A DNA stretch of 64,000 nucleotides from a bacterium (GCA_963674595.2 CAXXFV010000018.1:63470-127469); one strand, 5' to 3'; shown: positions 15,283 through 46,184, counted from the stretch's first letter. Notes: a model not told the origin generated them from the letters alone. Made by a program: numbers and translations.

Positions 15283-15390
15283 TTACGCCACTGACTCAAA
15301 ATTCGTACAATTTATTCACCAATCATAAAGGATTGTTTTCAGGATAATTTATCCAAGTACGGGATGGCATGACATTCCTGGTATTTTACA
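15283..15390 (+). promoter_or_regulatory. Promoter-plus-hairpin leader family, degenerate copy
   Basis: TTACGC-N17-TACAAT, then ACCAATCATAAAGGATTGTTTTCAGG...GACATTCCTGGT, homologous to the 40557 and 45996 copies. Confidence 0.6.
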
Positions 15391-15530
15391 GTCAATATAT
15401 TTTGAGTTACACGCTACAGCAGAACGGCGCTCTATAACGATCCAGTTTCTAATCGAAAATTAAAACGGTCAACTGATAAAAGACACCAGGTGTCTTTATA
15501 TATATCATATTTTTATTTGGAGGTATATTA

Positions 15531-16295
15531 ATGGTCGATTTTTTGTATGAAGGAAAAAAAATATTAATAGTTGAAGATCAAGTTATTATTGCAATGAATG
15601 AGATGGAAGAATTAAAATCTGTTGGATTTAATCCTCTTTATGCCACCTCGGGCGAAGGTGCAATAAAAATCGTTGAAGAAAAAAATGGAAATTTTGATTT
15701 AATATTAATGGATATTGATCTGGGGCATAATAAAATTAATGGCGCAGATACGGCAAAAAAAATTTTAAAAAAATATGATATTCCTATTGTTTTTGTATCG
15801 TCACATACCGAAAAAGAGATCATAGACGAAACTGAAAAAATTACGGCTTATGGGTACATTTATAAAAATATTGAAAATTCGTTAAAATTGGCAAGTATCA
15901 AGATGGCATTAAGGTTATCTGAAAGTACTTTAAAAATAAAACGTTCTGAAGAAAAATTCATGACGGCATTTATGCTTAATCCTGCAACCGTGTCAATAAA
16001 TGACATGGAAACAAACCAAATAGTCGACTGTAATTTAGCTTTCGAAAAAATAACCGGATACACCAAAGAAGAAGCTGTTGGAAAAACGGCCGCAGAATTG
16101 AATTTTTTTGAAGATATTGAAGAATTGGGAAGAATGTTAAAAGTTATAGAAGAACAAGGTGAACTGACAAACTTTAAACATATCTTTAAAAATCGCAGAG
16201 GAGAATCATTTTTAACATATCTGTCAACAAAAAAAATATGGTTAAATAACAGGCAATATCACATGGTATGCCAAACAGAATTCGAATCATTATAA
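15531..16295 (+). CDS. Response regulator with receiver and PAS domains, no DNA-binding output domain
   Basis: KILIVED, DLILMDI, PIVFVSS, GYIYK; PAS N.AFE.ITGYTKEE.VGK. Confidence 0.88.
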   Translation: MVDFLYEGKKILIVEDQVIIAMNEMEELKSVGFNPLYATSGEGAIKIVEEKNGNFDLILMDIDLGHNKINGADTAKKILKKYDIPIVFVSSHTEKEIIDETEKITAYGYIYKNIENSLKLASIKMALRLSESTLKIKRSEEKFMTAFMLNPATVSINDMETNQIVDCNLAFEKITGYTKEEAVGKTAAELNFFEDIEELGRMLKVIEEQGELTNFKHIFKNRRGESFLTYLSTKKIWLNNRQYHMVCQTEFESL

Positions 16296-16386
16296 AAAAC
16301 CAGGTAAAAAGTTGAGAACAATACCAACAAGCTGTCTTTTACTCAAGTTTATGGTTTTATAATTTTCTACATTTTTTAAAAACCCC

Positions 16387-16604
16387 TTGCACCAATGACT
16401 GAAAATTTGTAATATTATTTTATCAGTCATAAAGGTCTGTTATTCGGGGTAATTTAATAAGTATCCCCGCTGCTCACCGGCCTTTGGCTGGTTTTCCACA
16501 CACATAAATGGGCTTTATACACACACGAGGAAGAGATTGCATCTGTTATTTAATCACATTCCTGCTGGTCCGTGTTCAATATATTTTGGATTGGGTGTGG
16601 TACG
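16387..16604 (+). ncRNA. Promoter-plus-structured leader family, long copy (putative cis-regulatory RNA or sRNA)
   Basis: TTGCAC-N17-TAATAT; stem ATCAGTCA(TA)AAGGTC / GGCCTTTGGCTGGT followed by TTTCCAC; downstream ACGAGGAAGAGATTGC..ATTCCTG..TTGGGTG.GGTACG shared with 46103-46184. Confidence 0.6.
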
Positions 16605-16639
16605 TCATGTTGCAAACATGTTGATTTTTTTGATGATGT

Positions 16640-16781
16640 TGTCATCCAAAGGTTCCGGCCTTTGGATGCAGAAAAATAAAGGCTGTGCCTTTGTAAATGA
16701 TAACGTTAAACAAAAATCCATGAAATGGAGGGCCGAGCCCTCATGTTATTCCGTCCAGGGGTAGAGAATCCCTGGACTATC
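16640..16781. repeat. REPIN-like element copy A (142 bp, spacer type 1)
   Basis: Left hairpin CATCCAAAGG-TTCCGG-CCTTTGGATG, central GAGGGCCGAGCCCTC, right hairpin GTCCAGGG..CCCTGGAC; near-identical to 23870-24011 and 25985-26126. Confidence 0.9.
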
Positions 16782-24098: not shown

Positions 24099-24195
24099 TT
24101 GCATTGATTTTATGCAAGTTGTAAAATTATTTATCATGCATCTTTTGAATATTTCCTGATCGCCCGATATTATAGCCACAAATAAGGAATGTTTG
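24099..24195 (+). promoter_or_regulatory. sigma70-like promoter with following hairpin (divergent member of the leader family)
   Basis: TTGCAT-N17-TAAAAT; GAATATTTCCT..AAGGAATGTTT can pair. Confidence 0.45.
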
Positions 24196-27488: not shown

Positions 27489-28784
27489 GTGGACACCTCC
27501 TTTGGTTTATAATATAAAAAGTGCTTAACTTTGTGTCCACTAAAATATAGCAAGTTTACCTGCCTGTAACAATAGCAAACAAAATGGAGAGAAAAAAGGC
27601 GAAATCCCAAAACCACTCCATCTGACATTGGAACAAGCGGACCGTCTTGCCGAACTGCCCCTGGCGTGTATGCAAACAGAGTATCCCAACAAATTGGGAC
27701 AAACACTGGGCGGCAAAAAAGATATCGGCGAACCGCATGTATTACATCCGGCATTTTACGGCTGTTATGACTGGCATTCTGCGGTCCACGGGCACTGGTC
27801 ACTGGTAAAACTATTAAAGGAATTTCCTCAATTAGCCAGAGCCGATGAGGTCCGTTTAAAACTGCAGCAAAACATCACAAAACAAAATATTCTGGCAGAG
27901 GTGGCTTATTTTGAGGGTAAACACAACAAGTCATACGAACGGACCTATGGATGGGCGTGGCTGTTAAAGCTGGCTGAGGAATTGTATACCTGGGATGATC
28001 CGTTGGCAAAACAGTTGTCACAAAACCTTCAGCCATTAACAGATTTGGTTGTTCAGAGATATATCGAATTTCTGCCCCGGTTAAAATATCCCATCAGAGT
28101 GGGCGAACACACCAATACGGCTTTTGGATTGTGCTTTGCCTGGGATTATGCCAATACAACACAGCACGAACAACTGAAATCGGCAATAGAATCCAGGGCC
28201 CGGGATTTTTACATGGACGATATAAACTGTCCCCTGGGCTGGGAACCGAGCGGTTATGACTTTTTATCACCCTGTCTTGAAGAGATCGACCTGATGCGCA
28301 GAATATTGAATAAAGCCGAGTTTAAAAACTGGCTTGACGGATTTTACCCCCGGCTTGAGGATAAAAACTTCAAACTGGAACCGGGCCAGGTTTCGGACCG
28401 AACAGACGGCAAACTTGTTCATCTGGACGGCTTAAATTTCAGCCGGGCCTGGGTTTTATATGGTTTGGCTGGCCAATACCAGGAATATAAACACCTGATA
28501 AATAGTGCCAACGAACATATAGAATACTCTTTACCCAACCTGGTAGGTGACAGTTACGAAGGCGGCCACTGGCTGGGCTCATTTGCTATCTATGCTCTCA
28601 ATAGTTTTTCCGAAAGATAAAATATTATCTGGTCTACCTGCATGGCAATGAAAAAACAGGATCCTTGTCTACTTGTTTTTCAGCTAATGCGATGTTTTAA
28701 ATATAAAAGGGGGAAATTATCAAAATTATGCATTTTAATACCGGCCCACCGAGGGATGGCAAATAGAATTTGTCAAATTATAGC

Positions 28785-28880
28785 TTGCGCCAATAGATCA
28801 TAATTTGTATTATTCCTTTATCAGTTGTCAAGGTTTGCTTTTCAATGCTTTATTCGTGATACCTTTGGCTGATTTACCAC
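28785..28880 (+). promoter_or_regulatory. Promoter-plus-hairpin leader family copy
   Basis: TTGCGC-N17-TATTAT; ATCAGTTG(TC)AAGGT..ACCTTTGGCTGAT followed by TTACCAC. Confidence 0.65.
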
Positions 28881-28956
28881 TTTACCAATTACAAGAGAAT
28901 TATTGTGGGCGGCTTTTATCCAGTCTGATTGTTGGCAAAATAAAGGAGAGCCAGAA

Positions 28957-31608: not shown

Positions 31609-31617
31609 GATATACCT

Positions 31618-32444: not shown

Positions 32445-32921
32445 ATGAAATATAAAATACCAGGCATTATTATTTTATTGGTAATTATAATCCAATTTAT
32501 ACCCTATGGCAAAAACCATACAAATCCATCTGTTGTGGCCGAACCCGCGTGGGATTCCCCACAGACAAGAGCACTTTTTTTTCGTGCTTGTTCAGATTGT
32601 CACAGTAATGAAACAACATGGCCCTGGTACAGCAATGTTGCACCAGGTTCCTGGCTCATTCAACATGATGTAAATGAAGGTCGTGAGCATTTCAACATCT
32701 CCAAATGGGGTGTCCAGAATAGAAATGAAGGTGATGAAGCAGCCGAAGAAGTAAAAGAAGGTGAAATGCCGCCCTGGTTTTATGTCATTGCCCATTCACA
32801 TGCCAGGTTGTCAAAAAACGAAAAAGACCAATTTATTACAGGTCTTTTAAAAACATTCAATGACGAAAAAAAAGAAAACGAATCTGAAACTGAAAATGAA
32901 TCTGAAAAAGGCGAAAATTAA
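32445..32921 (+). CDS. Haem-binding domain (Haem_bd) c-type cytochrome
   Basis: ACSDCHSNET.WPWYS, GR.HFN.S, EMPP..Y. Confidence 0.9.
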   Translation: MKYKIPGIIILLVIIIQFIPYGKNHTNPSVVAEPAWDSPQTRALFFRACSDCHSNETTWPWYSNVAPGSWLIQHDVNEGREHFNISKWGVQNRNEGDEAAEEVKEGEMPPWFYVIAHSHARLSKNEKDQFITGLLKTFNDEKKENESETENESEKGEN

Positions 32922-32958
32922 GTAAGGCCAGGTTATTAAAATATAAAACAGGAAGAAT

Positions 32959-34458
32959 ATGATATCATCATTAAATAAAGACTGGGCAAAGCATGTTGTT
33001 GGCTATCAATGTTTTGTCGACAGCTTTGCCATAGGCAGTAAAGAAATAAAAGAAAAATTATCTTTATATACATCGCCGGTCTATGATAAACAACCCAAAC
33101 TTATAAACTGGTCGGATGAATTTGCCGAATATTCCTTTGGCTATGCATTTTACGGTGGAGACCTTTCGGGAATTATTAACTCAATAAACCAGTACCTGGC
33201 CGACTTTGGAATTGACATGCTTTATTTAACCCCCATATTCAAAGCGGAAAGCAACCATAAATATGATACACTCGATTATATGACTATAGACCCCCAGTTT
33301 GGAGATTCATCGGTTTTTCAAAATCTGGTTAAAACCTGCAAGGACAAAAACATCAAACTTGTACTGGATGGTGTTTTTAACCACACAAGTTATCATCATG
33401 AATGGTTTTTAAAAGCAGCAAAAGGAGAACATCCCTATGACGATTATTTTAAAAAAGACGAAAATGGTCACTTTTTAAACTGGAACGGCGTTGAAACCCT
33501 GGTCCTGTTAAATCACAATAATCCGGATGTTCAAAAATATTTTTACGATTCGCAGCAAAGTATTGTAAAATACTGGCTGGATAAAGGCGCTGACGGCTGG
33601 CGGCTGGATGTGGCCGAACGATTGGGTAAAGACGTAATTAAAAAAATTAAAAAGTGTCTAAAAAATAATTTTGATGATAAAATTCTTTACGGTGAAGTGA
33701 TTGAAACCTATGGTAAAGAGTGGCTGGGCAGCGAATTGCTGGACGGCGCCATGAACTATGTTTTCCTTGGCAACACGGTTAATTTTCTCACAAATAAAAT
33801 TAATGGTGAAACCTTTTTATCGGAACTCGTTAAAATGTATGATGAATATCCAAAAGAGCAGCTTTACAACTGCTGGAATATTATCAGCACACACGACACA
33901 AACCGAATGATTTATGAAGTGGATGGAAACGAAAATCTCTTTAAAATGGCTGTTACACTTCAATTCACCTATCCGGGTATTCCGATGATTTATAACGGGG
34001 ATGAGTTGGGTATATTACCCGGACAAAAAGACAAAAATAATCGTCAGGGGCTTGATTGGCAGCGGGTTGATATTTTAAAATTAAAAGAAAAAGGCCCCTG
34101 GAAAGCCGTTCAACCAATGGATTGGAAGCGGGCAAACCAATATTCCAGTTTTTATAATTTTTATAAACATCTCATTTGGCTGCGAAAAAACTATCCGGTT
34201 TTTGTATACGGTGATTTTATACCTGCTTTTTGCAATGATCAAATTATTGCATACTATCGGTTTTGGGGTGAACAGTATGCTCTGGTTATTATTAACAAAG
34301 CAGAAACTCAAGAGATAGCAGTTAAAGTTCCTGAGGAAATATTAAAAAACAAACCTGTCCTGAAAGGAGTTCACGGTCCGATCAATAAAATAGAGCTTGG
34401 TGAAAAATCATTAAACATAAAAATAAATAAACAAAATTCGCTTATATTTGTCAATTAG
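32959..34458 (+). CDS. GH13 cyclomaltodextrinase/neopullulanase-like glycosidase
   Basis: GGDL.G, SNHKYDT.DY, LDGVFNH, GWRLDVA, GE, THD. Confidence 0.92.
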   Translation: MISSLNKDWAKHVVGYQCFVDSFAIGSKEIKEKLSLYTSPVYDKQPKLINWSDEFAEYSFGYAFYGGDLSGIINSINQYLADFGIDMLYLTPIFKAESNHKYDTLDYMTIDPQFGDSSVFQNLVKTCKDKNIKLVLDGVFNHTSYHHEWFLKAAKGEHPYDDYFKKDENGHFLNWNGVETLVLLNHNNPDVQKYFYDSQQSIVKYWLDKGADGWRLDVAERLGKDVIKKIKKCLKNNFDDKILYGEVIETYGKEWLGSELLDGAMNYVFLGNTVNFLTNKINGETFLSELVKMYDEYPKEQLYNCWNIISTHDTNRMIYEVDGNENLFKMAVTLQFTYPGIPMIYNGDELGILPGQKDKNNRQGLDWQRVDILKLKEKGPWKAVQPMDWKRANQYSSFYNFYKHLIWLRKNYPVFVYGDFIPAFCNDQIIAYYRFWGEQYALVIINKAETQEIAVKVPEEILKNKPVLKGVHGPINKIELGEKSLNIKINKQNSLIFVN

Positions 34459-34922
34459 CGCTTTGCCCCATGTTTATAAGGGAAACGGAACCCGGCAAAA
34501 GATAAAATTGTTTTTAATGACATAATTCAATGGATTAATAGTTTATAATTTCATAAATTGTGAGGTGCAGCTCTAACGCACCTTTTATGTTATGACAAGT
34601 TCCTGGCGGTATTCGTCCTCCATAAAAAAATATGCAGTACGTCCTTAAAAACAACCTGGAACATCTCTGCAAAACAGAGAAAGAGATTGTATATAAAAAG
34701 TTACGGTAGCAGTTAATTCATCAAGAATTATATATACTCTTGATTAAAAACGCCGACTGATACCTGCCGTTATCATCCTGAAAAATAATAACATGCCTCC
34801 CCGGATACCGGGACTTTTCAGACCGGCACTATTTTTGCTAGTCCTCTTTATCTCACCAGAGAGAATGAGACAGAGGTATCCACAGATGCCATATATTAAA
34901 TTATTCAAATGGTTAAATAGAA

Positions 34923-35207
34923 ATGAAAATAATTAACACGATACTTTTACAAAAATGTGGTGACGATTCTCAGATAATCGAAATAAAATTAGCAGCGGTG
35001 ATTACTAAAACGTTCATTTTTTCACTTGGAAAAGGTGGAAACGTACAATATTTGGCCCATTTTAAAAGGCCGATTTTTAAAATTAATGTACCCGGTATTT
35101 ATAATATACAAGGGGTTGCCGGCGAAAAAACAATGCGTGTACATTTATTTAATCCAAAGGTATATTCACTTGACATGCTTTTGAAAAGTATAGAGAAAAT
35201 TGGATAA
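34923..35207 (+). CDS. Hypothetical protein
   Basis: 94-aa ORF with no recognised motif. Confidence 0.4.
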   Translation: MKIINTILLQKCGDDSQIIEIKLAAVITKTFIFSLGKGGNVQYLAHFKRPIFKINVPGIYNIQGVAGEKTMRVHLFNPKVYSLDMLLKSIEKIG

Positions 35208-35467
35208 AATCACCAATTACACAAGCGGGATTGTTTGCCGGATTTTCTTTTAAATACCGGCAAAGAAACTGCTTAATACTTTTCCTCGCTTTTTACTCTC
35301 ACCATAAAACAAGACAAAATTAAAATTATCAGGTAAATTTCTAAACGGGTCGGAAAAATTTAATTTTTAAAATTGTTGCCAAAACCAATATTTTTTTTAC
35401 AATTCAATATTCCTTTTAAACGAATTCATCCGCCATTTTTGCGTTGACGAATCCCGGAAAAACTGTA

Positions 35468-35782
35468 ATGAAAAAATACCCGGTTCTGTTGTTTTTAACA
35501 TTATACAGATCGCTTGTCTATTCCGGTGATAACACACTGCTGTTTGACACTGAGGATGACGACAGCATTGTTACATCCGTTCCCGTTCTTTCAGCCTGGA
35601 AGCAGGTCGTGCTGGACACCAATTACGGCGGAAACTGGATTGTGACCGGTGATGTTGACGGAGACGGCATATCCGACGTAACACTGCTTACCACAGATCC
35701 GGGCATTGTTCATATATTTAAAAATGAACATGGAAAAACGACTTCACAAACAGGCTGTGGTGTGAATTTTACCTTTTATTAA
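35468..35782 (+). pseudogene. Probable internally deleted secreted FG-GAP-type protein
   Basis: Signal-like N-terminus, a single GDVDGDG repeat, then immediately a C-terminal-like tail. Confidence 0.45.
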
Positions 35783-35886
35783 ATTCGTTCATATAAAATT
35801 TATCAATACAAATCCTAAAAATCCGATGTTGACCGAATGCAAGGCAGCAAATAAAGTACAAAATTGATCAGGAGTAGAAAAATTTC

Positions 35887-37344
35887 ATGAACAGACGAGA
35901 ATTTATCAAAAAATCAGGTATTTTATCAACCCTTACCCTCTTACCGCAAACAAAATGCAGCCACGCACCCCAAAAACAACCGAATTTTATTTTCTTTGTC
36001 GTTGACGATCTCGGCTGGTCGGATGTGGGTTGTTACGGAAGCACCTATTATGAAACTCCAAATATCGACAAACTTGCCGCTGATGGTATGAAATTTACCG
36101 ACGCTTATGCTGCGTGCTGTGTATGTTCTCCTTCCCGTGCAAGCCTTATGACAGGCAAATATCCCGGCCGCTTGCACATTACACACGCCATACCCATCGA
36201 TGGAGCAGCACGGCTGAACGCAGACAATAAAGGAACAACGTCCTTGCTGGAACCGGATTACTGTAAAAACATGCCGCTGGAAGAGGTTACAATTGCCGAA
36301 GTTTTAAAATCGGCCGGTTATCAAACCGGATTTTTAGGAAAATGGCATTGCTGCTGGGACAAAGAATATTTTCCACAGTACCAGGGATTTGACATTAATA
36401 TCGGCGGTAATGGCATGGGAAATCCGGGGAATTATTTTTACCCGTATGATGGTAAATGGCGCATGACAAAAAACAATCCGTGGATTAACTGGAACACCTT
36501 GCCGGACGGCAAACCCGGAGAATATCTTACAGACCGGCTGACCGATGAAGCGGAAAAATTCCTTGAATCGCACAAGGACAAACCGTTCTATCTGAATTTA
36601 TCCCATTATGCCGTACACACCCCCATTCAGGCCAAAGAAGAAATAACAATAAAGTTTGATGCCAAAGAAAAGGACGAAATTAAAGGGCATACCAATGCAA
36701 AATATGCAGCCATGATAAAAAGCGTTGACGAAAGCCTTGGCCGCGTTCTTAAAAAGGTAGATGAACTTGGACTGACCGACAACACGATCATTATTTTCAC
36801 ATCCGACAATGGCGGATTTGGTCATGTCACATCAAATTATCCGTTGCGGGGAAACAAGGGGAATTTTTACGAAGGCGGCATTCGTGTACCTGCCATTGTA
36901 GAATGGCCCGGCGTTACAAAACCGGGAACAGTCTCCTCAACAGTATTAATCGGTCCTGATTTTTACCCCACCATGCTGGAAATGGCACAACTGCCTCTTG
37001 AGCCAAAACAGCATGTCGATGGCGTCAGTTTTGCGCCTGTGCTTAAAGGTAAACCGGAAAACATACGGGATGCGGTTTACTGGCACTTTCCACATTATAT
37101 CGGTGCAGGCCATCCAACGCCGGCCAGACCCTGCAGTGTGGTCCGCAGCGGTGATTGGAAACTGATCGAATCCCTGGAAGATGGCAGCGCGCAGTTATTC
37201 AACCTGAAAGATGATCAGGCAGAAACCACCGATCTGGCGTTAAAAATACCGGAAAAAGTTAAAATATTAAAGGATATGCTGGCACAGCACCGTAAAGAAG
37301 CAAACGTGCAAATGCCCGGGAAAAATCCATATTATAATAATTAA
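35887..37344 (+). CDS. Tat-exported Cys-type sulfatase
   Basis: MNRREFIKK; DDLGW.D, CSPSRASLMTG, GKWH, SDNG, KGNFYEGGIRVP. Confidence 0.95.
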   Translation: MNRREFIKKSGILSTLTLLPQTKCSHAPQKQPNFIFFVVDDLGWSDVGCYGSTYYETPNIDKLAADGMKFTDAYAACCVCSPSRASLMTGKYPGRLHITHAIPIDGAARLNADNKGTTSLLEPDYCKNMPLEEVTIAEVLKSAGYQTGFLGKWHCCWDKEYFPQYQGFDINIGGNGMGNPGNYFYPYDGKWRMTKNNPWINWNTLPDGKPGEYLTDRLTDEAEKFLESHKDKPFYLNLSHYAVHTPIQAKEEITIKFDAKEKDEIKGHTNAKYAAMIKSVDESLGRVLKKVDELGLTDNTIIIFTSDNGGFGHVTSNYPLRGNKGNFYEGGIRVPAIVEWPGVTKPGTVSSTVLIGPDFYPTMLEMAQLPLEPKQHVDGVSFAPVLKGKPENIRDAVYWHFPHYIGAGHPTPARPCSVVRSGDWKLIESLEDGSAQLFNLKDDQAETTDLALKIPEKVKILKDMLAQHRKEANVQMPGKNPYYNN

Positions 37345-37497
37345 GAATAGGAAATAGCCATATCCGGACACTTTTTATTCCTAAGCCGGGATATGGGCAA
37401 GATGTCACTATTTATTGTCTCAGTGCCGCGAGTTATAAAAATGAAATCAAATTTCTACCACATAATAAATTTATCTTAATTGTAACTGGAGGAAAGG

Positions 37498-38874
37498 ATG
37501 AAAACACGGTTCTGGATTTTGTACTTGATCGCTGTCTTGTCAATTTTTCTGACAAAAAGCAATGCTAATGCACAATGGGGAAAAAGTTACATTGATTCAC
37601 TGGCAGTGGGTATACTATCACCGGCGACTGTCGCAGATATTCAGAATGATGGTGACCTTGATATTTTAGCGACAAGGATTACTGATTTTGAAAATTTTAC
37701 AGGTGAAATTGTATGGTATGAAGCACCTGACTGGACAGCGCACCTTATCGATGACGACTGGGGTATTTCCAAATCTTTTGACGTTAATGGAGATAATCAA
37801 CCGGATATCATTGCCGCAAATTATGCGGCTGAAGAAGTCGTCTGGTATGAAGCGCCAAACTGGAATCGTCATGTCATCGCTTCCGGAATCCAGGGCGTTG
37901 CAAATATCGACATCGTGGACATGAATAACGATAATGCGATGGATATTATAGCCGGCAGCATTTCTACCGGCATTGTTTGGTACGAAGCGCCAACCAGGAA
38001 TATGCATCAAATAGTACAAGATATATCCGCTTTCTGGTTTATAACCAGTGACATTGACAATGATAATGACCTTGATGTTATTCTTTCAAATGATAATGGC
38101 ATTTATTTTTACGAGGCGCCAACCTGGGCTGTTCATTCCATATCTAATATACCAGATGGCAGAGGCCAACTTGCTGTTGGGGATATTGATGGTGATAGTG
38201 ATTTGGATGTCGTTATAACAGAGGCGGAAGTGAACGAAATTGCTTTTTATGAAAACCCATCATGGACAAGGCATATTGTTGATTCACTGCGAAATCCAAT
38301 TGGTATCAAACTGGTTGATATGGATAAAGACAATGACCTGGATATTGTAGCGAGTGGGCGAGGAAATGAATCAATAAACGGAACAGTTGTATGGTTTGAA
38401 CTTCCTGAATGGACGAAACACACTATTGATGGATCCTTTACCGGAGCATCGGGAATCACGGCCGCCGATGTAAACGGAGATGAAATGCCGGATTTGATTG
38501 TTTGCAGTGTCACCGATAATTCCAGCGGCTCTATAGTGCTTTACACCTCTCCGCTTATAAGCAGAGTCTCCAAAGATATTTCAGCGGCAATTCCGGATTT
38601 TATAACACTTAATCAGAATTTTCCAAATCCATTCAATCCTGAAACAAACATCTCTTATGAACTCCAAAAGAATACACACGTCAGACTAAAAATTTATAAT
38701 TTGTCAGGGCAATGTGTGACAACACTTGTGGACGAAGAAAATTCCAGAGGGTTCCATTGCGTAAATTGGAACGGTAAAGATGATTCGGGAAAAAAAGTCG
38801 CCAGCGGGATTTTTATGTACACCCTTGAAGCAGAAAACGTATTACAAGTAAAAAAAATGATCCTGATACAGTGA
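37498..38874 (+). CDS. FG-GAP/VCBS repeat protein with T9SS/FlgD-Ig C-terminal domain
   Basis: About 7 D.DGD.D.D...WYE.P.W..H repeats; QNFPNPFNPET. Confidence 0.9.
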   Translation: MKTRFWILYLIAVLSIFLTKSNANAQWGKSYIDSLAVGILSPATVADIQNDGDLDILATRITDFENFTGEIVWYEAPDWTAHLIDDDWGISKSFDVNGDNQPDIIAANYAAEEVVWYEAPNWNRHVIASGIQGVANIDIVDMNNDNAMDIIAGSISTGIVWYEAPTRNMHQIVQDISAFWFITSDIDNDNDLDVILSNDNGIYFYEAPTWAVHSISNIPDGRGQLAVGDIDGDSDLDVVITEAEVNEIAFYENPSWTRHIVDSLRNPIGIKLVDMDKDNDLDIVASGRGNESINGTVVWFELPEWTKHTIDGSFTGASGITAADVNGDEMPDLIVCSVTDNSSGSIVLYTSPLISRVSKDISAAIPDFITLNQNFPNPFNPETNISYELQKNTHVRLKIYNLSGQCVTTLVDEENSRGFHCVNWNGKDDSGKKVASGIFMYTLEAENVLQVKKMILIQ

Positions 38875-38896
38875 TCCCATAGTAATTTTTCTCTTT

Positions 38897-38981
38897 TTCC
38901 TGCTCCCGGTTTTAAAAACCTGGGAGCAGGAAGAATTTGTTTTAAAAACATCTTGCCTTGATTTCATTTAATCTGTATAAT
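38897..38981 (+). promoter_or_regulatory. Hairpin followed by a family promoter
   Basis: TTCCTGCTCCC..GGGAGCAGGAA; TTGCCT-N17-TATAAT with spacer GATTTCATTTAAT shared with 40524 and 45961. Confidence 0.65.
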
Positions 38982-39152
38982 TCTTTTTTAAACCAAAGAA
39001 TTCTTTCCAAAAATGAAATACCGGTCCATGAGGCAACTATCGGACTGGAAAAAATTCAAAATTAAAAAATATTGAATATGGATAATTACTTTGTTACTTT
39101 TCTTAAAATATATCCATGGCGTTTAATATAAAAAATTATCGTTCCATTTCAG

Positions 39153-39974
39153 ATGAAGTTTGAAATAAAAAAATACCCTGTTAAACATCCTTTACTAAAA
39201 AAGTATATCAAATTCTTTTGGGAAATTCATGAAGAAAATATACAACTTTACCACAAGCTAATTCCTGTTAGAAATATCGATCTGAAATTCAATTTAAGTG
39301 AAACGCCTCATTTTATATGCTTGAATGGAAAGCAAGATATACTTGAAGATGTCTATTTTTCAGGATTGCAAGATCATTTCAGGAACGCCCATTTAAAATT
39401 AAATGGTAAGGCTGATATATTTGGGATTTGTTTTTTACCTGAAGGTTTTTTCCCTTTTGTTAAAATTCCTGTTTCTGAATTTAAAAATCAATTGCTGGGA
39501 ACCAGTGAAATTGGATTTAATGCAGCAAAAAGAATTAGCGAACGTTTAAAAGAAGCTCACGATGTTGCCGCAAGATTGGATATTATAGAAAACGAGTTAG
39601 CATCTCTGCTTGATGATGCTTATTATATCCCTAAAAAATTTCAACAACTTTTTAATACCCTCAAACAAAACGATAACTCGCAGCAGATAGCTGAATTTTG
39701 CCAACGTCAAAATATCGGTATGCGTAAATTAGAGCGCCTGTATAATAAATATATCGGCATACCAGCTAAAACCTACGGTACGCTTGATCGCTTTCAGAGC
39801 AGTTTAAACAAACTTCTTTATAACGATTATTCCAAATTATCTGACATAGCCTATGATGATGGTTATTTCGATCAGATGCATTTCATCAAAGAGTTCAAAC
39901 GTTTTACAGGAAATACCCCCAAGTGCTTTGTTGTTAATAATAATTCAATGTTACAAATAGGGAAATTAACCTAA
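39153..39974 (+). CDS. AraC-family transcriptional regulator (DUF6597-type N-terminus)
   Basis: R.LER.....IG..., A...GYFDQMHFIKEFKRFTG.TP. Confidence 0.92.
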   Translation: MKFEIKKYPVKHPLLKKYIKFFWEIHEENIQLYHKLIPVRNIDLKFNLSETPHFICLNGKQDILEDVYFSGLQDHFRNAHLKLNGKADIFGICFLPEGFFPFVKIPVSEFKNQLLGTSEIGFNAAKRISERLKEAHDVAARLDIIENELASLLDDAYYIPKKFQQLFNTLKQNDNSQQIAEFCQRQNIGMRKLERLYNKYIGIPAKTYGTLDRFQSSLNKLLYNDYSKLSDIAYDDGYFDQMHFIKEFKRFTGNTPKCFVVNNNSMLQIGKLT

Positions 39975-40048
39975 CTGTCGTTTTTATACTATTTTGTCAA
40001 ATTCTTTTCACTTATATTTCCTCCATAATTTTTAACACTAGATAATTT

Positions 40049-40360
40049 ATGGAGAACACAATGATTACAGAATTTGTAAAATTTACAGCATTAGAAACAA
40101 CAACAGAAAAACAGCTCATATCAAAATCTGACAGCTTGATTAATGGATTCTGGAAAAAGCAAGACGGTTTTTTAGATGCTGAATTAGTTAAAGATGTTGA
40201 AGAAAATTCATGGTGTTTTATATACCACAATGAAAGTATGGAAAAGCTAAAAGCCGGCGGTGAAAAAATGCGTAACAGTAAAGAATTTGGCGAGTTTATC
40301 TCCCTTATTGTTCCCAAAAGCATTTGTGTAACGTTCTATCGCCAATTAATAAAATGGTAG
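40049..40360 (+). CDS. Small dimeric alpha/beta-barrel (ABM-like) protein, probable AraC target
   Basis: F.KKQDGF...ELVK pattern; GGAG RBS; directly after AraC. Confidence 0.55.
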   Translation: MENTMITEFVKFTALETTTEKQLISKSDSLINGFWKKQDGFLDAELVKDVEENSWCFIYHNESMEKLKAGGEKMRNSKEFGEFISLIVPKSICVTFYRQLIKW

Positions 40361-40468
40361 GCATCTATTTTTCCATGTTGGAAAAAATAATCAGGTGAAA
40401 AGCTGATAAAAAAAGAGTCTCTGAAACGGGCTTGTTTTTCACCAACGGGGATAAAAAATATTTCTTTC

Positions 40469-40500
40469 TCTTGCCCCAAATACCACAATTTGGGGCAAGA
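40469..40500. terminator. Hairpin preceding the family promoter
   Basis: TCTTGCCCCAAAT-ACCACA-ATTTGGGGCAAGA. Confidence 0.65.
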
Positions 40501-40523
40501 ATAATTTATTTTTAAAAAACGCC

Positions 40524-40705
40524 TTGCCATGATTTCATTTAATTTGTATAATATTTATCAACTATAACGGATTGTTTTCAGGGAAATTGGCCGATCATGG
40601 GAGGTTTTGATAATCCGTTAGTTGATTTTCCACCTTATAATTTTACAACCTGCACGAGCACAAGCTGCACCGGATTGAGCGAGATTCATTTTGTTCCTCC
40701 GGCAG
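40524..40705 (+). ncRNA. Promoter-plus-structured leader family copy
   Basis: TTGCCA-N17-TATAAT; stem ATCAACTA(TA)ACGGATTGT / ATAATCCGTTAGTTGAT followed by TTTCCAC; 40 nt identical to the 45996 copy. Confidence 0.65.
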
Positions 40706-41022
40706 TTTTTAAAAAGGATTCAATGCGACTCGCCCTCACGATGATTCAAAAATCCATTATATAAATCATATAATAATAATTTCCAAGTTGATATAAATAA
40801 TATCTTGAAAAATTGGATAACGATTAAAAGCAGGAACAAGTATCAATTAAAAACAAAAAATAGTGTTTAAACATACCTCATTCCACGATTACGCAAACCA
40901 TATCATTCATACAGATCCGACCAAAAGCGACTATTCATCCGGACATTAACAAGTAATCATCAGGTAACAGTCAGTAGTGCATTTATTCACATTTAAACTA
41001 TTTGAAATAAAAGGAGTTTAAA

Positions 41023-44000
41023 ATGAATTTCGGCAGACAGTGTTTTTTATTGACAGTTGGATTTTTACTTATTATTGCTGATTCCTATGTACAAGGTGGG
41101 CAATTGAACGATCCGAATGGAAATCAAAACTTGAATCCTTATCCGGAAATTGACACAATCAAAAACCAAAGGGACCGTTCATTCGTCAAACAAGATTATA
41201 AACTCTCTGAAGTTATTAAACAGACAATAACTAAAATGGAGCAAGGCGGTTTGGCCCGTCATTCCTATTCCTATAATTCTAATAATAAAATAACAATGGA
41301 ATTAATTGAGGGATCGCTTGGATCAGATAATTGGGTAAATCATCAACGCTGGACATATACCTATGATGCTGACGGAAATACAATTACTAAATTATTCGAA
41401 GAATGGGACTATATCAATTATCAATTCAAATGGGCAGGTAAAAAACGCTGGACATATACCTATGATTTTGATGGAAACATGACATCAGAGTTATTGGAAA
41501 ATTATCAGGATGATCAATGGGTAGCTGATTATAAAAAGACGTTTGAATGTGATTTAAAAGGAAACGTGACATTATATGTGCATGAGCTATGGTATGACAA
41601 TCAATGGAATATTAATTTAAAGGAAAAACATACTTTTACTTATGATGCCAACGATTATATAACTACGGAAGTCATTGAAGGCTGGTATAATGACCAATGG
41701 AGAAACAGTCAACGTATAACATATACTTATGCCAATGGAAAGGTAACATCAAAGACCTACGAAGGGTGGGCTGTCTTTAGTAATCAATGGGGAAACGCAC
41801 TGAAAATCACCTACACTTATGACGGTAATGGAAATATGACTCAAATGTTATATGAGGATTGGGGACTGGAAGACTGGTATGAAGTTAAACGCTGGACATA
41901 TACTTATGACTTTGATGAAAATTTAACATCTGAACTCTATGAATATAGTGATGCTGAATGGATTAATGGTTGGCGCACCAACTATACCTATGATTCCATG
42001 GGAAATAAAATTTCTGACTATTATGAAGAATGGGAAGGCGGCCAATGGGTCGAAAAACATAACTACAGAAGAAATTATAGCTACAACTTGAATGATAACA
42101 TGATATATGGAAAATCTGAAAGAAACATAAACGGCGCCTGGGAAGATTTTGATGATGAGTTTAAACTTATAGATATTTACGGAAATGAATATGTATATGA
42201 AGCCACTGAAATACAAATAGATTATGGATCACCTTTTCCTGAAGATGAAATTTATGAGATAGAATTTTATACCGGAGAGTTTAATATATCCAAACTTTTT
42301 AATAAAGTAAGGTTTACAAAGGCGCTTGGTCGTAAAAACTTGGACATTGAGGCGGAAATAACAAATGTAAAAGAAGACACCATTTGGTTCAGACTTCCTT
42401 TTGGGCTGGTTTTTTCTAAAGATATTTTTTTAGAAGAAATAATAAATGGAAGAACTGCCGATACGGTCCACTTTGAAATCACCACAGATATAGGACTTGA
42501 AACTGAAAGAACTATTGTCGATTCCCTGCGATGGATTTTCCCAAGACTGCTTTTATATGATGATGTTGTAAACCCTCCGGCAGCAAACCAGCAGCAAATT
42601 TTACGACAATTTGATTTGGAAGCCAAATACCCTGATGATGTCCGGACCTTTTTCTTTCTGGGGGAAAAAGAGGATGGCCTGGCAAGTGTACGCGTGGTAA
42701 ACACTCAACAAAGCATATCGGGAGATAATCCTCTTGTTTTGGATTTAAAAGTCGGTTTGGCGAATGGACAAGTTCCACCATTTCAAATATATAATATGGG
42801 AATTGGAGATAAAGGGGTTCAATTCCAGGTAAACCGTGACAGCATTTACGTCATTTGCGTTTTTCATCCACATGATTCGAGGGCCTTCAACTTTCCGGCA
42901 GCTTTTCAGATTCATTTGGCCGGAAATGTGGGGCATCCCCGAAAAATAATTAATGGTATTCCGGAATTTCCCAGAGCGACCCGTCTGGATATATTGTTTA
43001 ACCACGTCGCTCCCTATCCGCAACAACTGTTACAGATGCAGACAGAACACAATGCAACCGGTGCAGAGACATCAATTTTTAAATTTGGCAATTATACGGA
43101 TGTCTTTCCCTATGCTGTGGCGGTATTGGTACCGCCAAAACAATCTCCTGACGGAATGCCCTTGGGCCAGTCCTATCTGCGCGCACCAGACCCCATGCCG
43201 CTGGTGCCGCCCGTAGATTTGACAACGCCGACCGCAACAACTCCGGCCCTGGTTCCGGGAATGCTTGAAAGTCCGGAATATATTGCAATCGATTTTACAC
43301 AATTACCCTATCCGCTAGTACCGATTGGGCCGTTAAATACCGAACAAGGGAATTTGGGTCACAACACGGTAGCCGCTGTCATTGGCGAAAATAATGGAAC
43401 ATTGGTTACCCTGCCGACATCTGCTGAAATAAAAAGTATTATTGTAGATATGGGTTCGGGACAGGAAATTGTGAACAGCGACGGAGCGGATTTTCAGGTT
43501 TTTTCACCTTCCGGCAGCTATAACATTGCCGTAAGCAATACGCCCTATGCCTCAACGTTTGAAGCATATGAAGGCACCTTTACCGGAGACCAGCAATTTG
43601 ATTTAAGCAGCACAACATTATCCAGTGCCCGATATGTCAGGATTATTGCCAACCCTTCTGCTCAAATTAATGCTGTTAAATCACTCAATGTTTTTATGGA
43701 CCTTTTTTATAACGAGGAGGTCGGCCCGGTCAATGAATTACCAAAAGTGACAACGATAATGCGCCGGGCTAAAGCGCCGCAAACAAATATAAATCCTTTT
43801 CTTCAGCTTCTTTCCGCAGATGGAGAACTCATATTAGATTCTCCGGGTGGATTCGGTGATGTTACGAATAATTCATTAACAGACGCCGTTATTACGCAAC
43901 CCATCTCTCAAATGGGATTCTATCGCTTTTTAGCTAAAGGGTATGATGATTATCCTGATGAGCGGGCATTTGGACAATTTTTTGCCCGTCTTGAATCGTC

Positions 44001-45810
44001 AGGCGAATGGAATACGGCTGATATTAATATCAGTCAGGCAGATGAAACAGAAAGTCACATCTATAACGGAAAAATCACAACGACAAGGGAAAGAGATTCC
44101 TATATATTTCAGGCTGAACCGGGACAGAAACTAAATATATCCGTCAAAGCTCCGGATTCTGAACTCGACCTGGTGCTGGAATTATATGATCCCGAAGAAT
44201 TTCTTATAGCAGCAAATGATAACTATAATGACAGAGGGCGAGATGCCGTTATATCACTGCAATTACCTGTAAACAGCATTTACGGCATTCAAACATTGCC
44301 TAATCCCAGCACCTATCGCGTGGTGGTCAGTGCAATCGATAAAATTGGAAATAAAACAATTTACGATGGTATAAATTATTTTAAACGAGAGGTTGCTGGC
44401 GGTGATTATGAACTGCGGCTATTCAACGGTGCACTTGAAGGTGAAGCCTCTGACAGGCCTGTTATAACAAAGGTTACTCCTCAAAAAGTGATACAGGGTG
44501 TTCAAAACCTTGAATTGAATATTACGGGAAGCAATTTTGTAAACGGCGCTCTGGTATCATTTAGTCCCGATGGCATAACGGTTGATCAGACGGAGGTCAT
44601 TAATGACACCCTTATTAAAGCCACAATAGACGTTTCTCCTTCTGCTCAAATCGGCTGGCGGGATGTTATTGTGAGCATTCCCGATGGTGCATCAGGCACC
44701 GGTTCCTGGTTGTTCAGGATTTCTGAATCCCTGGGTATGGTTGATCTTGCATGGGACCCCCCGGAAACGGGAGAAACATTAAATCCGCCGCTTAATTTAA
44801 CAGCAAATCTGAATATTGACGGACTGGCAAAACACCACAATATAACGATAGACTGGAATTCGAAAAATCCTTTAACAGATCAAATAAATTTAGATGAAAC
44901 AGAACCCAATAACAGCATGGATGAGGCCCAGGTACTGTCCGGCGACCAAACAATTGTGGTGCAGGGGAACGCCGAAATAGATGACGCGGGAACGGTTAAT
45001 TTAACTGAGGACGATATTGAAGACCTTTACAAAGTGACATTAATTCAACCCGGATTAATTGTAGAACTGGGCAATTATACATCAGATTGTGATTTATATA
45101 TTTTTAATGATACTTTTGAATTTATCGCCATATTAAATGAACCCGGAGCTGTGGGCGGCCTCGAACAGTTTTTTGATGAGGAACTGCCTGTTGGAGAATA
45201 TTTTATCGGTGTATCCATTAACGATTCTGATCCGATTGGCGGCCCGTCAACCTCTTATGTACTCGTCGTTACCGGTGAATTTGATGGTCAGGGATCAAAT
45301 CCCGCATTATTGTCTTATAACATTTATCGTTCACTGTCCCCTAATGCTAAAGAAAGCGGTGTATTAATCGGGTCTGTCAGTGCGGGCACTAATTCATACA
45401 GCGATCCTGCGCAGAGTGTTAACGATTATCTTTATCAGGTCACGGCTGTTTATGATGCAGGTGAAAGCGGCCCTTCAAACGAAGCAACCGTAACTGTGAC
45501 GCGAATAAACGAAAAAGACAATCTTGTCCCGGTAGCATTCATGCTCTCTCAAAATTACCCCAACCCATTTAATCCGACGACAAAAATTGTCTACAGTATT
45601 CCGGAAAATGGACAGGTTTTTCTAGAGATATACAACAATATCGGACAAAAAATAAGGTCATTGGTAAATGAAAATCAAAATTCCGGCAGATATACAATTG
45701 AATGGGACGGAATGAACGATAAAGGCCTGAAAGTAACAAGCGGGATATATTTTTATCAGCTAAGGTCAAATGGTTTCATTGAAACTAAAAAAATGGCTAT
45801 TCTAAGATAG
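41023..45810 (+). CDS. Large secreted multidomain protein: YTYD/W repeats, Pro-rich unknown core, PPC-like, IPT, FN3 and T9SS-type CTD
   Basis: Signal peptide; about 9 (W)TYTYD..GN...E.W...W repeats; RDSY.F.A..GQ, DETEPNN, ITGSNF, YQVTAVY..GES..SN, QNYPNPFNPTT. Confidence 0.85.
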   Translation: MNFGRQCFLLTVGFLLIIADSYVQGGQLNDPNGNQNLNPYPEIDTIKNQRDRSFVKQDYKLSEVIKQTITKMEQGGLARHSYSYNSNNKITMELIEGSLGSDNWVNHQRWTYTYDADGNTITKLFEEWDYINYQFKWAGKKRWTYTYDFDGNMTSELLENYQDDQWVADYKKTFECDLKGNVTLYVHELWYDNQWNINLKEKHTFTYDANDYITTEVIEGWYNDQWRNSQRITYTYANGKVTSKTYEGWAVFSNQWGNALKITYTYDGNGNMTQMLYEDWGLEDWYEVKRWTYTYDFDENLTSELYEYSDAEWINGWRTNYTYDSMGNKISDYYEEWEGGQWVEKHNYRRNYSYNLNDNMIYGKSERNINGAWEDFDDEFKLIDIYGNEYVYEATEIQIDYGSPFPEDEIYEIEFYTGEFNISKLFNKVRFTKALGRKNLDIEAEITNVKEDTIWFRLPFGLVFSKDIFLEEIINGRTADTVHFEITTDIGLETERTIVDSLRWIFPRLLLYDDVVNPPAANQQQILRQFDLEAKYPDDVRTFFFLGEKEDGLASVRVVNTQQSISGDNPLVLDLKVGLANGQVPPFQIYNMGIGDKGVQFQVNRDSIYVICVFHPHDSRAFNFPAAFQIHLAGNVGHPRKIINGIPEFPRATRLDILFNHVAPYPQQLLQMQTEHNATGAETSIFKFGNYTDVFPYAVAVLVPPKQSPDGMPLGQSYLRAPDPMPLVPPVDLTTPTATTPALVPGMLESPEYIAIDFTQLPYPLVPIGPLNTEQGNLGHNTVAAVIGENNGTLVTLPTSAEIKSIIVDMGSGQEIVNSDGADFQVFSPSGSYNIAVSNTPYASTFEAYEGTFTGDQQFDLSSTTLSSARYVRIIANPSAQINAVKSLNVFMDLFYNEEVGPVNELPKVTTIMRRAKAPQTNINPFLQLLSADGELILDSPGGFGDVTNNSLTDAVITQPISQMGFYRFLAKGYDDYPDERAFGQFFARLESSGEWNTADINISQADETESHIYNGKITTTRERDSYIFQAEPGQKLNISVKAPDSELDLVLELYDPEEFLIAANDNYNDRGRDAVISLQLPVNSIYGIQTLPNPSTYRVVVSAIDKIGNKTIYDGINYFKREVAGGDYELRLFNGALEGEASDRPVITKVTPQKVIQGVQNLELNITGSNFVNGALVSFSPDGITVDQTEVINDTLIKATIDVSPSAQIGWRDVIVSIPDGASGTGSWLFRISESLGMVDLAWDPPETGETLNPPLNLTANLNIDGLAKHHNITIDWNSKNPLTDQINLDETEPNNSMDEAQVLSGDQTIVVQGNAEIDDAGTVNLTEDDIEDLYKVTLIQPGLIVELGNYTSDCDLYIFNDTFEFIAILNEPGAVGGLEQFFDEELPVGEYFIGVSINDSDPIGGPSTSYVLVVTGEFDGQGSNPALLSYNIYRSLSPNAKESGVLIGSVSAGTNSYSDPAQSVNDYLYQVTAVYDAGESGPSNEATVTVTRINEKDNLVPVAFMLSQNYPNPFNPTTKIVYSIPENGQVFLEIYNNIGQKIRSLVNENQNSGRYTIEWDGMNDKGLKVTSGIYFYQLRSNGFIETKKMAILR

Positions 45811-45818
45811 AACATTTT

Positions 45819-45848
45819 GCTCGCCCGGGGAAAGGGCTCCCCGGGCGA
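45819..45848. repeat. GCTCGCC-type hairpin (REP-like/terminator)
   Basis: TCGCCCGGGGA-AAGGGC-TCCCCGGGCGA; related to 23186, 47203 and 48520. Confidence 0.7.
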
Positions 45849-45960
45849 AAATAGTTTGAATATCTCCCATCTTTAATCGTCTCAAGGTTCCAACCTCATA
45901 GCATAGAAAACTAAAGTCCTTCCCTTCACAGTTGTTTTTTTGAATAAACATAAAAACCGC

Positions 45961-46184
45961 TTGCACAGATTTCATTTAATTTGTATAATCTATTAATCAG
46001 CTATAACGGATTGTTTTCAGGGAAATTGGCCGATCATGGGTGTTACGGACAATCCTGTAGCTGGGTTTCCATTATCTTTTACATTCGGGACTTTTAGCAT
46101 AAACGAGGAAGAGATTGCGTCGAATTCAAGATCATATTCCTGTTGTTTTACCGTCAATAATAATATTGGGTTGGGTGAGGTACG
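45961..46184 (+). ncRNA. Promoter-plus-structured leader family, long copy
   Basis: TTGCAC-N17-TATAAT; stem CAGCTATA(AC)GGATTGTT / GACAATCCTGTAGCTG followed by GGTTTCCA; 3' part homologous to 16525-16604. Confidence 0.65.

Follow-up and report, generated by a model that had tools for sequence, protein, structure and literature searches.

Why do functionally unrelated genes in the genome of one uncultured bacterium stand behind what appears to be the same promoter and the same RNA leader? The question is raised by a 64,000-nt stretch of DNA (GCA_963674595.2 CAXXFV010000018.1:63470-127469, hereafter the window), in which such units are found between positions 15,283 and 46,184. A first-pass annotation had described eight sigma70-like promoters, six of them followed by a stem-forming leader, and had proposed a riboswitch, an attenuator, a small RNA or the end of a mobile element. 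In our cautious judgement, the unit is probably a promoter-leader module that one lineage reuses for gene expression, and not a riboswitch.

All eight promoters were present on the plus strand, among 19 matches to TTRC-N19-TANNAT in the window; 9.07 ± 2.98 were expected, and none of 100 shuffles reached 19. The same pattern with a spacer 4 nt longer matched seven times in the window against 8.1 expected, and across the whole genome a stricter regular expression gave 127 matches at 17-bp spacing versus 13–21 at seven alternative spacings. Two of the eight stood without a leader, one at 24099–24127, where the covariance model of the leader hairpin used for all hairpin calls in the window (R1) found nothing, and the other at 38953–38981, upstream of an AraC-type regulator gene at 39153. 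Since leaderless copies also precede ordinary genes (dUTPase, DEAD-box helicase, solute symporter and GH92), the promoter part appears to be the general strong promoter form of this organism.

The six leaders reported behind the other promoters resolved into four clear copies, one weak copy and one fragment, all on the plus strand. Behind the promoter at 16387–16415, which has an upstream A-tract, a hairpin with predicted helices P1, P2 and P3 and a TTTTCCAC tail (16420–16500; 60.5 bits) was followed by a further set of motifs, the D block (ACGAGGAAGAGATTG, 15 nt, CACATTCCTG and TTGGATTGGGTGTGGTACG; 16525–16605), and then by a FISUMP gene at 16872. The hairpin behind the promoter at 28785–28813 was short (28818–28881; 40.6 bits), retaining P1 and P2 with P3 and the apical loop substituted; it forms a row in our alignment of 63 distinct module copies (A3). 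The promoter at 40524–40552 adjoins the terminator hairpin of the upstream gene (40469–40500), and its leader hairpin (40555–40634; 77.6 bits), with no D block by motif, precedes the gene of a 1595-aa protein from 41023. The fourth clear copy combined a promoter at 45961–45989 with a hairpin (45994–46073; 63.1 bits) and a D block running through TTGGGTTGGGTGAGGT into a fading tail (46103–46199). These last two copies were near-identical from promoter to loop and divergent in the right arm, as mosaic copies. The weak copy was a degenerate hairpin (15320–15392; 27.3 bits, E 0.0007) between the promoter TTACGC-N17-TACAAT at 15283–15311 and a response regulator-PAS gene at 15531–16295. After the promoter at 32321–32349 only the short fragment GTTTGCTTTTCAGG was found, with no match to the R1 model, upstream of a haem-binding gene at 32445.

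The family extends well beyond the window. In the whole genome, the covariance model detected 74 hairpins at E ≤ 0.01 and a sequence profile detected 89 promoter-plus-leader copies with matches reaching into the leader, spread over 20 contigs with 1–12 kb and several genes between copies. The additional blocks noted in the copies at 16422 and 45996 (ACGAGGAAGAGATTG .. ATTCCTG .. TTGGGTKGGTACG) proved to be real and recurred in 37 genome copies. The leader family was found in none of 124 other genomes of the class, none of 166 other genomes of the phylum and neither of two contig collections. That the leader matches no riboswitch consensus was borne out in the window by an Rfam scan, in which a single tRNA alone reached the gathering threshold; an E-value scan of 15000–47000 returned just two matches, both eukaryotic and at chance level.

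The proposed covariation of the stem was supported by the alignment, in whose rows the quoted arm pairs, the 2-nt bulge of the 5' arm and the TTWCCA tail were all visible. In the aligned copies 81.8% of stem cells were paired, compared with 26–48% when the partner was slid, and two-sided changes were observed at 16 of 21 pairs. Compensatory cells numbered 76 versus 39.8 ± 7.8 in shuffles, none of 500 shuffles reaching the observed count, although the copies are paralogues within one genome, for which shuffle tests overrate covariation. Cognate left and right arms also paired better than shuffled partners, with none of 2000 permutations as good. Read on the sense strand, G.U pairs outnumbered A.C pairs (106 vs 54), a 2:1 bias that points to folding as RNA but is not overwhelming and would also agree with a hairpin formed by this strand as single-stranded DNA. 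Stability was moderate (mean z −1.78; z < −2 in 19 of 52 copies). The distance from the −10 element to the first paired base was 5–6 nt in 49 of 52 copies, and the hairpin thus begins at, or about one base from, the predicted 5' end of the transcript, the start site itself being a prediction. Stabilising 5'-terminal stem-loops of the ompA type lie 0–2 nt from the 5' end of the transcript.

A structured, covarying leader with conserved loops and no match among known families is what a ligand-sensing riboswitch or a terminator-type attenuator could look like. On the other hand, the family was present in one of 125 class genomes and one of 167 phylum genomes, and about 60 functionally unrelated genes lie downstream. 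Moreover, a weak TTTWCC tail, unlike that of a terminator, comes after the hairpin, no terminator-like site was found behind the modules in window positions 28000–47500, and pairings over longer distances, from which an alternative fold might arise, gave no cognate signal. We therefore regard this reading as highly improbable. A small RNA with an end of its own was no better supported, given the same lack of terminator-like sites between 28000 and 47500 and the fact that 82 of 88 copies run into an ORF of at least 100 aa on the same strand.

Conservation was not limited to pairing. P1, P3, the apical loop (UUGG..CAYGGGAG), UGGGAUU and ACGAGGAAGAG were conserved in sequence, and the leader contained more G than C (23% vs 16%). 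A mere stabiliser does not explain such strongly conserved loop and D-block sequences. One way to account for them is that the leader is the putative binding site of a single trans-acting factor, for example a GGA-binding protein of the CsrA type or a NusG-type antiterminator with a specialised role, co-regulating about 90 accessory operons, defence systems and the integron integrase included. The conserved motifs are rich in GGA and GGG, which we take to resemble CsrA motifs, and long leaders separate the predicted start site from the start codon (median 307 nt, interquartile range 259–387 nt). Candidates in the genome are one CsrA and two NusG-family proteins. However, a number of GGA motifs sit within stems, and we consider this explanation unlikely.

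Another account of the D block is that it opens a short upstream ORF, a putative leader peptide whose translation controls the downstream gene. The element GAGGAAGAGA-TTG shows the geometry of a start site, 32 of 37 copies have a gap of exactly 30 nt between it and CAYATTCCTG, and the frame stays open for at least 22 codons in 35 of 47 copies, compared with 15 and 22 of 47 in the other frames. In the copy that precedes an integron integrase gene (intI), no canonical start other than this TTG precedes the conserved integrase body. Nevertheless, three-base periodicity was absent (1.12, 1.27 and 1.09 bits by codon position), some copies have early stops, and the ORFs range from 1 to at least 100 codons with unrelated tails, which makes a leader peptide very unlikely.

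The downstream genes were as unrelated as had been claimed, both in the window and for the sampled genome copies. Within the window, the genes checked encode the response regulator-PAS, FISUMP and haem-binding domain proteins, the 1595-aa protein, which is of RHS/T9SS type, and a Bro-N protein. The gene labelled dinD is the Bro-N gene, and a 631-aa protein labelled beta-helix gave no Pfam match. Among 59 downstream proteins from across the genome, 32 matched Pfam families that were largely unrelated, with a few recurring (e.g. Por_Secre_tail, LVIVD and Gp49), and 12 matched PADLOC defence models, including ThsB, DrmD, LmuA, REase II and PDC-S13. One module stands directly before the gene of a genuine integron integrase (TIGR02249; 454 bits vs a cutoff of 265), another before an intI fragment (C6:1531-1963), and a third before an IS200-like Y1 (RAYT-like) gene. 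The host belongs to a little-studied candidate phylum, and the nearest named relatives of the integrase come from candidate division KSB1 MAGs.

The Y1 gene, together with some 90 dispersed, lineage-specific copies that maintain a hairpin, would suit a selfish repeat of the REPIN/MITE type, copied by a transposase as single-stranded DNA with an incidental promoter. This gene nevertheless has inverted REP hairpins of its own at its flanks (GGCACGCGCCTTTAGGCCGTGCC), different from the module, and reading through the copies revealed no terminal inverted repeats. Random insertion would also not predict the layout observed, in which 82 of 88 copies share the orientation of a gene that lies a regular distance away. 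We consider such a repeat improbable. Of the earlier suggestion that the unit is the end of a mobile element, the part that agrees best with our observations is a supply of expression to captured genes.

What lies behind a module can change while the module stays. In two contigs from related strains (X6 and X8; records of 11,679 and 14,716 nt), 50 other letters replace positions 46177–47287, so that the Bro-N / PDC-S13 gene on the plus strand (46256–47197) is missing, and the break point coincides with the 3' end of the module at 45961. Module copies also head the variable cargo slots of multi-copy prophage-like elements. Four paralogous elements, encoding an integrase, YqaJ, RecT, Lin1244_N and a GpA-ATPase, were 82–95% identical in their left part, which was followed by the module and then by 3.9–7.8 kb of differing cargo before homology resumed. 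Genome-wide, 33 copy pairs shared at least 85% identity over 42–2214 nt, and in no case was the adjacent downstream gene collinearly common to two modules. The homology breakpoints of these 33 pairs were few and scattered over profile positions 80 to 240. One pair of paralogous elements already differed at the 5' edge of the module, which indicates that the module is carried along with the cargo in some cases and left in place in others.

Exchange of this kind recalls an integron, in which the hairpin or the 3' end of the module would be an attC/attI-type DNA site at which the genome's IntI captures cassettes behind a resident promoter. The true integrase and the intI fragment behind modules speak for it, as do unpaired extra bases confined to one arm and the homogeneity and species specificity of the copies, which recall chromosomal integron sites. 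In addition, the conserved 3' motif GGTTGGGT holds a GTTRRRY-like core directly before the strain-variable gene, although in ~240 nt chance alone would give a GTTRRRY match about one time in five. But no RYYYAAC..GTTRRRY core bounds the hairpin, whose P1 arms read ATCAGY/RCTGAT in most copies, and the 3' end of the variable gene showed no attC-like RYYYAAC..GTTRRRY hairpin. Instead of a fixed crossover point, breakpoints were scattered (profile positions 181, ~206, ~228 and 241), and the copies are separated by multi-gene spans of 1–12 kb on 20 contigs. The apical loop is conserved, while attC sites have a variable terminal structure; the excess of G.U pairs relative to A.C pairs speaks for the sense (top) strand and against bottom-strand folding as a recombination substrate; and none of the 19 intI loci in relatives had a module nearby. 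An integron site is accordingly an improbable explanation.

The reused expression module, which we prefer, would work as follows. A sigma-70 promoter of consensus type, made up of an A-tract, TTGC, a spacer of 17 nt and TTTG-TAnnAT, is joined to a predicted leader of ~215 nt, whose first ~70 nt would form a three-helix hairpin in the transcript and may act as a 5'-terminal stabiliser, possibly also as a protein handle. The conserved TTTWCCAC tail and the D block would follow, in which a Shine-Dalgarno-like GAGGAA can pair with a conserved UUCCU, and the ribosome site of the gene itself would come after the D block. Heading accessory, secreted and defence cargo operons of variable islands and prophage-like elements, the module would give newly acquired genes a ready promoter and leader, and we infer that its ~250-bp copies provide portable homology through which recombination between copies could swap the cargo behind them. 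If so, the genome fits foreign genes with a standard promoter and leader, yet keeps them exchangeable.

A bolder extension, which we think unlikely, is that a single host or element factor switches ~90 acquired operons jointly through this lineage-specific RNA leader, while the same ~250-bp unit is the linker for cargo swapping by element-encoded RecT/YqaJ. In that case a single sequence would tie the regulation of accessory genes to their exchange, for operons including Thoeris-, DISARM- and Lamassu-type defence genes, toxin-antitoxin pairs and the integron integrase. With about ninety operons, a fifth of those sampled matching defence models, and an integron integrase among them, the module itself represents promoter-leader reuse on an unusually large scale and in unusually clean form. 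Through it one can test whether defence and accessory genes share regulation that acts once transcription has started, and its promoter and 5' hairpin form a compact natural part whose effect on mRNA stability is directly measurable.

Several known systems share features with the module. Correia, ERIC and REPIN sequences occur in tens to hundreds of lineage-specific intergenic copies, may supply promoters and form 5'-UTR hairpins, and resemble transposons in carrying terminal inverted repeats and target duplications, or in having a cognate RAYT. The module resembles them in its many lineage-specific intergenic copies with promoter and hairpin, but it is near-fixed in orientation to genes, the REPs of the RAYT-like gene differ from it, and terminal repeats were not seen. 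These three families have been named in work on putative mobile promoters, which are closely similar upstream sequences before unrelated genes of one genome with no recognised mobile element, defined by an identity of 80% or more along 50 nt or more in front of non-paralogous genes (Nijveen, Matus-Garcia and van Passel 2012, PMC3575422). Most such families are pairs, and they may carry post-transcriptional elements (PMC3575422). Through its copy pairs our family falls under this definition, and the module likewise stands upstream of unrelated genes in one genome; it differs in its ~90 copies, its defined covarying 5' hairpin and ~215-nt leader, and its concentration in variable islands and prophage-like cargo slots. 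Slots in prophages and phage satellites ('morons', hotspots) hold swappable accessory or defence cargo between fixed flanks of a conserved backbone. The elements described here share the conserved backbone and the defence-rich cargo, but every slot opens with one module that is also found at many sites outside them. Finally, an integron platform (IntI, attI with a Pc promoter and attC-bounded cassettes) is similar in placing a resident promoter before exchangeable, promoterless-looking cargo, in the true IntI, in the one-sided extra bases and in homogeneous, species-specific copies. The modules, by contrast, constitute many dispersed platforms rather than one array, with no attC at the 3' end of the cargo and no fixed crossover, and their conserved loop and sense-strand wobble bias point to RNA.

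The pattern TTRC-N19-TANNAT was matched 19 times in the window, compared with 9.07 ± 2.98 matches expected, and none of 100 shuffles reached 19. All eight promoter sites proposed in the first-pass annotation were among these matches, all on the + strand. A control pattern with a spacer 4 nt longer gave 7 matches in the window against 8.1 expected; therefore, the promoter enrichment hinges on the 17-nt spacing. Across the assembly (6.62 Mb in 37 contigs, 38.8% G+C), of which the window covers C18:63470–127469, a stricter promoter, TT[GA]C, 15 nt, T[TC][TG]GTA..AT, was matched 127 times, as against 13–21 times at seven other spacings, and an A-tract lay upstream of most of these genome-wide matches. 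Since leaderless copies also precede ordinary genes, encoding dUTPase, a DEAD-box helicase, a solute symporter, GH92, LacZ and Usp, the promoter part looks like a general strong promoter form of the organism. Subfamily likeness in their spacers nevertheless shows that the promoters of module copies, those fused to the leader, share descent.

A profile of the promoter and leader matched the genome 120 times at E<1e-3, and 89 of these matches extended into the leader at E<=1e-10. R1, a covariance model of the 5' hairpin alone (82 positions, 21 pairs), detected 74 genomic copies at E<=0.01 among 150 scored candidates. In the window, R1 matched leader hairpins at 16420–16500, 28818–28881, 40555–40634 and 45994–46073, and weakly at 15320–15392. 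The six leader sites claimed at first are thus borne out at four positions and weakly at a fifth, while site 32321 holds a leader fragment alone; at 24099 and 38953, the promoter stands without a leader. Past the hairpin, full copies share the order TTTWCCAC, an A/U-rich spacer, UGGGAUU, ACGAGGAAGAGATTG, exactly 15 nt, CAYATTCCTGTT and TTGGGTTGGGTGAGGTGTGG, and the start-to-start distance between the two motifs of the D block, which follows the hairpin, is 30 nt in 32 of 37 copies. An extra block behind the D block, made up of a hairpin, TGGATGCAGRAAA and a second small hairpin, was found at 16620–16700 in the 16387 copy and at 51250–51340 of contig C29, and was absent from all other modules.

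For 60 leaders aligned by MAFFT alone, RNAalifold predicted zero pairs; the right arm was misaligned. Individual folds had a three-helix hairpin in common, and a hand-set seed structure with Infernal realignment was used in place of the MAFFT alignment. In 20 seeds with this structure, 83.4% of cells paired, compared with 27–49% when the partner was slid. When 71 R1 hits, 63 of them distinct, were realigned by Infernal, standard pairs filled 81.8% of cells, compared with 26–48% with the partner slid. Two-sided changes were detected in 16 of 21 pairs (9.5 ± 1.6 after shuffling) and compensatory changes in 76 cells (39.8 ± 7.8 after shuffling), with none of 500 shuffles as high in either measure, a control that overstates covariation because the alignment is fitted to the R1 structure, and hence biased towards it, and all of its rows are paralogues from one genome. 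In an alignment-free test, cognate left and right arms paired better than arms taken from different copies, with no permutation out of 2000 as good. The two tests agree, and support the covariation of the stem noted in the first reading. On the sense strand of the Infernal alignment, G.U or U.G occupied 106 cells and A.C or C.A 54, a bias that folding of the transcript, or of the same DNA strand, predicts. The hairpin was moderately stable, at a mean of -18.1 kcal/mol and a mean z of -1.78, with 19 of 52 copies below -2. In 49 of 52 copies its first paired base lay 6–7 nt past the -10 element, where the transcript is expected to start. Column-pair mutual information computed from the nhmmer alignment gave no useful signal, and a search for long-range pairing in the tail, loop, middle of the D block, linker and 3' region found no cognate signal outside the hairpin. 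The D block can form a stem of its own (GAGGAA with UUCCU, GAUU with AAUC), which covariation neither backs nor refutes because it is nearly invariant.

In an Rfam scan, only tRNA reached threshold and the remaining matches were at chance level, in agreement with the initial impression that the leader matches no known riboswitch. BLAST in 30 relatives found no module copy. Among 167 genomes of the phylum, the D motif was matched 27 times in the genome under study and 0 times in the other 166, and R1 found no copy in 124 other genomes of the class with strict filters and only 36 candidates scored per genome. Two exact motifs, which reach close relatives only, had no match in metagenome and genome contig collections. 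Among the genomes compared, the genus is represented by this genome alone. Of 88 evaluable copies, 82 are followed by a same-strand ORF of at least 100 aa, 2 by an opposite-strand ORF and 4 by none, with a median of 307 nt (IQR 259–387) from the predicted transcript start to the start codon. Pfam families were matched in 32 of 59 downstream proteins and in none of the other 27. As first claimed, these families are largely unrelated, although a few recur; they comprise histidine kinases, PA14/lectin, LVIVD and other T9SS-tailed proteins, FISUMP, TIR, SNF2 helicase, Schlafen/AlbA_2, KAP NTPase, Gp49 toxins, caspase, radical SAM, GH2, Lnt, an IS200-like Y1 protein and integrase. PADLOC models matched 12 of the 59, including ThsB, DrmD, LmuA, REase II, PDC-S13, QatA-like, NsnC and caspase. 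A riboswitch, one of the readings offered at first, is unlikely for copies that were found in only one of the genomes searched and precede functionally unrelated genes. The suggestion of an sRNA is also unlikely, with no terminator-like site found behind the modules at window positions 28000–47500 and predicted read-through into the genes.

The leader could also have been a decayed protein-coding fragment, an outcome that the first-pass annotation had foreseen. From the TTG of the D block, the frame is open for at least 22 codons in 35 of 47 copies, compared with 15 and 22 copies for the two other frames; conservation of the D block lacks three-base periodicity, at 1.12, 1.27 and 1.09 bits for the three codon positions, which speaks against such an origin. 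In one copy, the frame opened by this TTG is that of a genuine integron integrase (TIGR02249, 454 bits; cutoff 265), whose closest named relatives are from candidate division KSB1 MAGs. Its residues 1 to 12–15 overlap the D block and are unmatched in homologues, where alignments begin at about residue 12–15, and none of 19 intI loci in relatives had a module nearby. Because of these two results, the leader was rejected as a decayed integrase remnant. Integron integrases occur in 56 of 125 genomes of the class, a tally that counts one unpublished genome, G158. Just 3' of the intI stop (L001:15676–15737, in a stretch of contig C3), an imperfect 18-nt inverted repeat, AACTTATATTTGATTGC .. GCAATCTATAATAAGTT, with AAC/GTT as outermost pairs, could represent a terminator or a site of the att type. 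A CRISPR-like array, internally duplicated in part, follows downstream of the integrase at a distance of about 4 kb, with 48 copies of the 37-nt repeat GTCGAAATACTACCCAGGACTAATACTGGATTGAGAC at a spacing of 73–77 nt (L001:8315–11700, C3:108314–111699). A second, decayed arrangement of module plus intI stands at the start of contig C6 (1531–1963), where a module (nhmmer match 1531–1772) is followed by integron-integrase fragments at 1756–1848 and 1871–1963 with 55–61% amino-acid identity to IntI residues 20–89.

Contigs from two sequencing runs carrying related populations (X6 and X8, with about 98% identity in this region) pass across the 45961 module and, after 46176, continue at 47288, with 50 other letters between. 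A 1111-bp stretch with the Bro-N/PDC-S13 gene is missing from them, and the module stands directly ahead of the next gene's ribosome site. Strain joints with sides of 20–27 letters, or lying between two modules, were left out. A prophage- or satellite-like multi-copy element was observed at C3:117000–133000 (L168), with paralogues on C10, C9 and C25. The left part of these four elements, with a tyrosine integrase, YqaJ exonuclease, RecT, Lin1244_N and a GpA-type terminase ATPase, is 82–95% identical; to its right, each has a module and then 3.9–7.8 kb of unrelated cargo, in C3 the gene for the integron integrase plus two more genes. The four become homologous again at a second promoter copy followed by an element of about 130 nt, which ends in a terminator-like stem and T-run (..ATGGGTCCGTTTTTTT) and delimits the variable cargo on its right side. 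The same promoter type accompanies this element in L139 (C9:148598), L140 (C10:45927, minus) and L154 (C25:13526), and it is promoterless in C3. It had no Rfam match at E<=1 and, because of its terminal stem and T-run, looks like a putative sRNA. The module copies of the four elements are about 70–75% alike, judged by eye from an alignment, which is below the identity of the flanks, so the module is at times exchanged along with cargo.

Elsewhere, C9:127572 and C3:77744 share 90% identity that extends into the module and ends at about position 206, and C5:26420, a third member of that group, diverges already at the module 5' edge. Copies 40524 and 45961 match almost completely from the promoter up to the loop; their differences lie in the right arm. 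No two modules share an adjacent downstream gene collinearly, and copy-to-copy homology breakpoints are few and scattered. Copies are most numerous on C29 (20), C26 (10) and C13 (8); ten contigs hold 58% of copies in 18% of the genome, a descriptive figure, the contigs having been chosen after counting. In the dense array of C29, modules recur every 1–2 kb, accompanied by toxin-antitoxin pairs of the Gp49/HTH type and a set of restriction-modification genes, and a 1-kb duplication there ends directly past the D-block GAGATTGCG. Between toxin-antitoxin pairs and the next module, a palindromic repeat, ..GTCACCCTGAGCGGCCTTTCGGCTCTGCTCAAGGACCGAGTCGAAGGGTG.., was observed at L014:6490–6590 and 7830–7930 (C29 at about 49.5 and 50.8 kb). 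A docking site of the integron type, at which cargo would be inserted, would agree with the IntI encoded in the genome, the one-sided bulges of the hairpin and a GTTRRRY-like core at the start of the strain-variable gene; however, the cargo junctions are scattered, an attC closing the cargo was not found and the wobble bias is towards the sense strand, leaving this a minority possibility, weakly supported at best. A REPIN-like repeat is unlikely because the sole RAYT-like gene carries its own, different REPs and the orientation of the module is tied to genes. This IS200-like Y1 gene lies between inverted REP-like hairpins (GTGGCACGCGCCTTTAGGCCGTGCC) in L038 (C23:97831–98376), and part of a second copy is at C23:106848–107000.

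The hairpin might shield or mark the 5' end of cargo transcripts, and the conserved loop and D-block sequences could bind some factor. Counts of CsrA and NusG genes bear on this only circumstantially. Module copies may also serve as short homologies for the swapping of cargo, possibly with help from RecT and YqaJ of the same elements. Our data fit a reused promoter–leader module of the putative mobile promoter kind. Such promoter reuse has been catalogued under the name of putative mobile promoters (PMC3575422); in comparison with these, the module described here is unusually numerous and carries a defined RNA hairpin at the predicted 5' end of the transcript.
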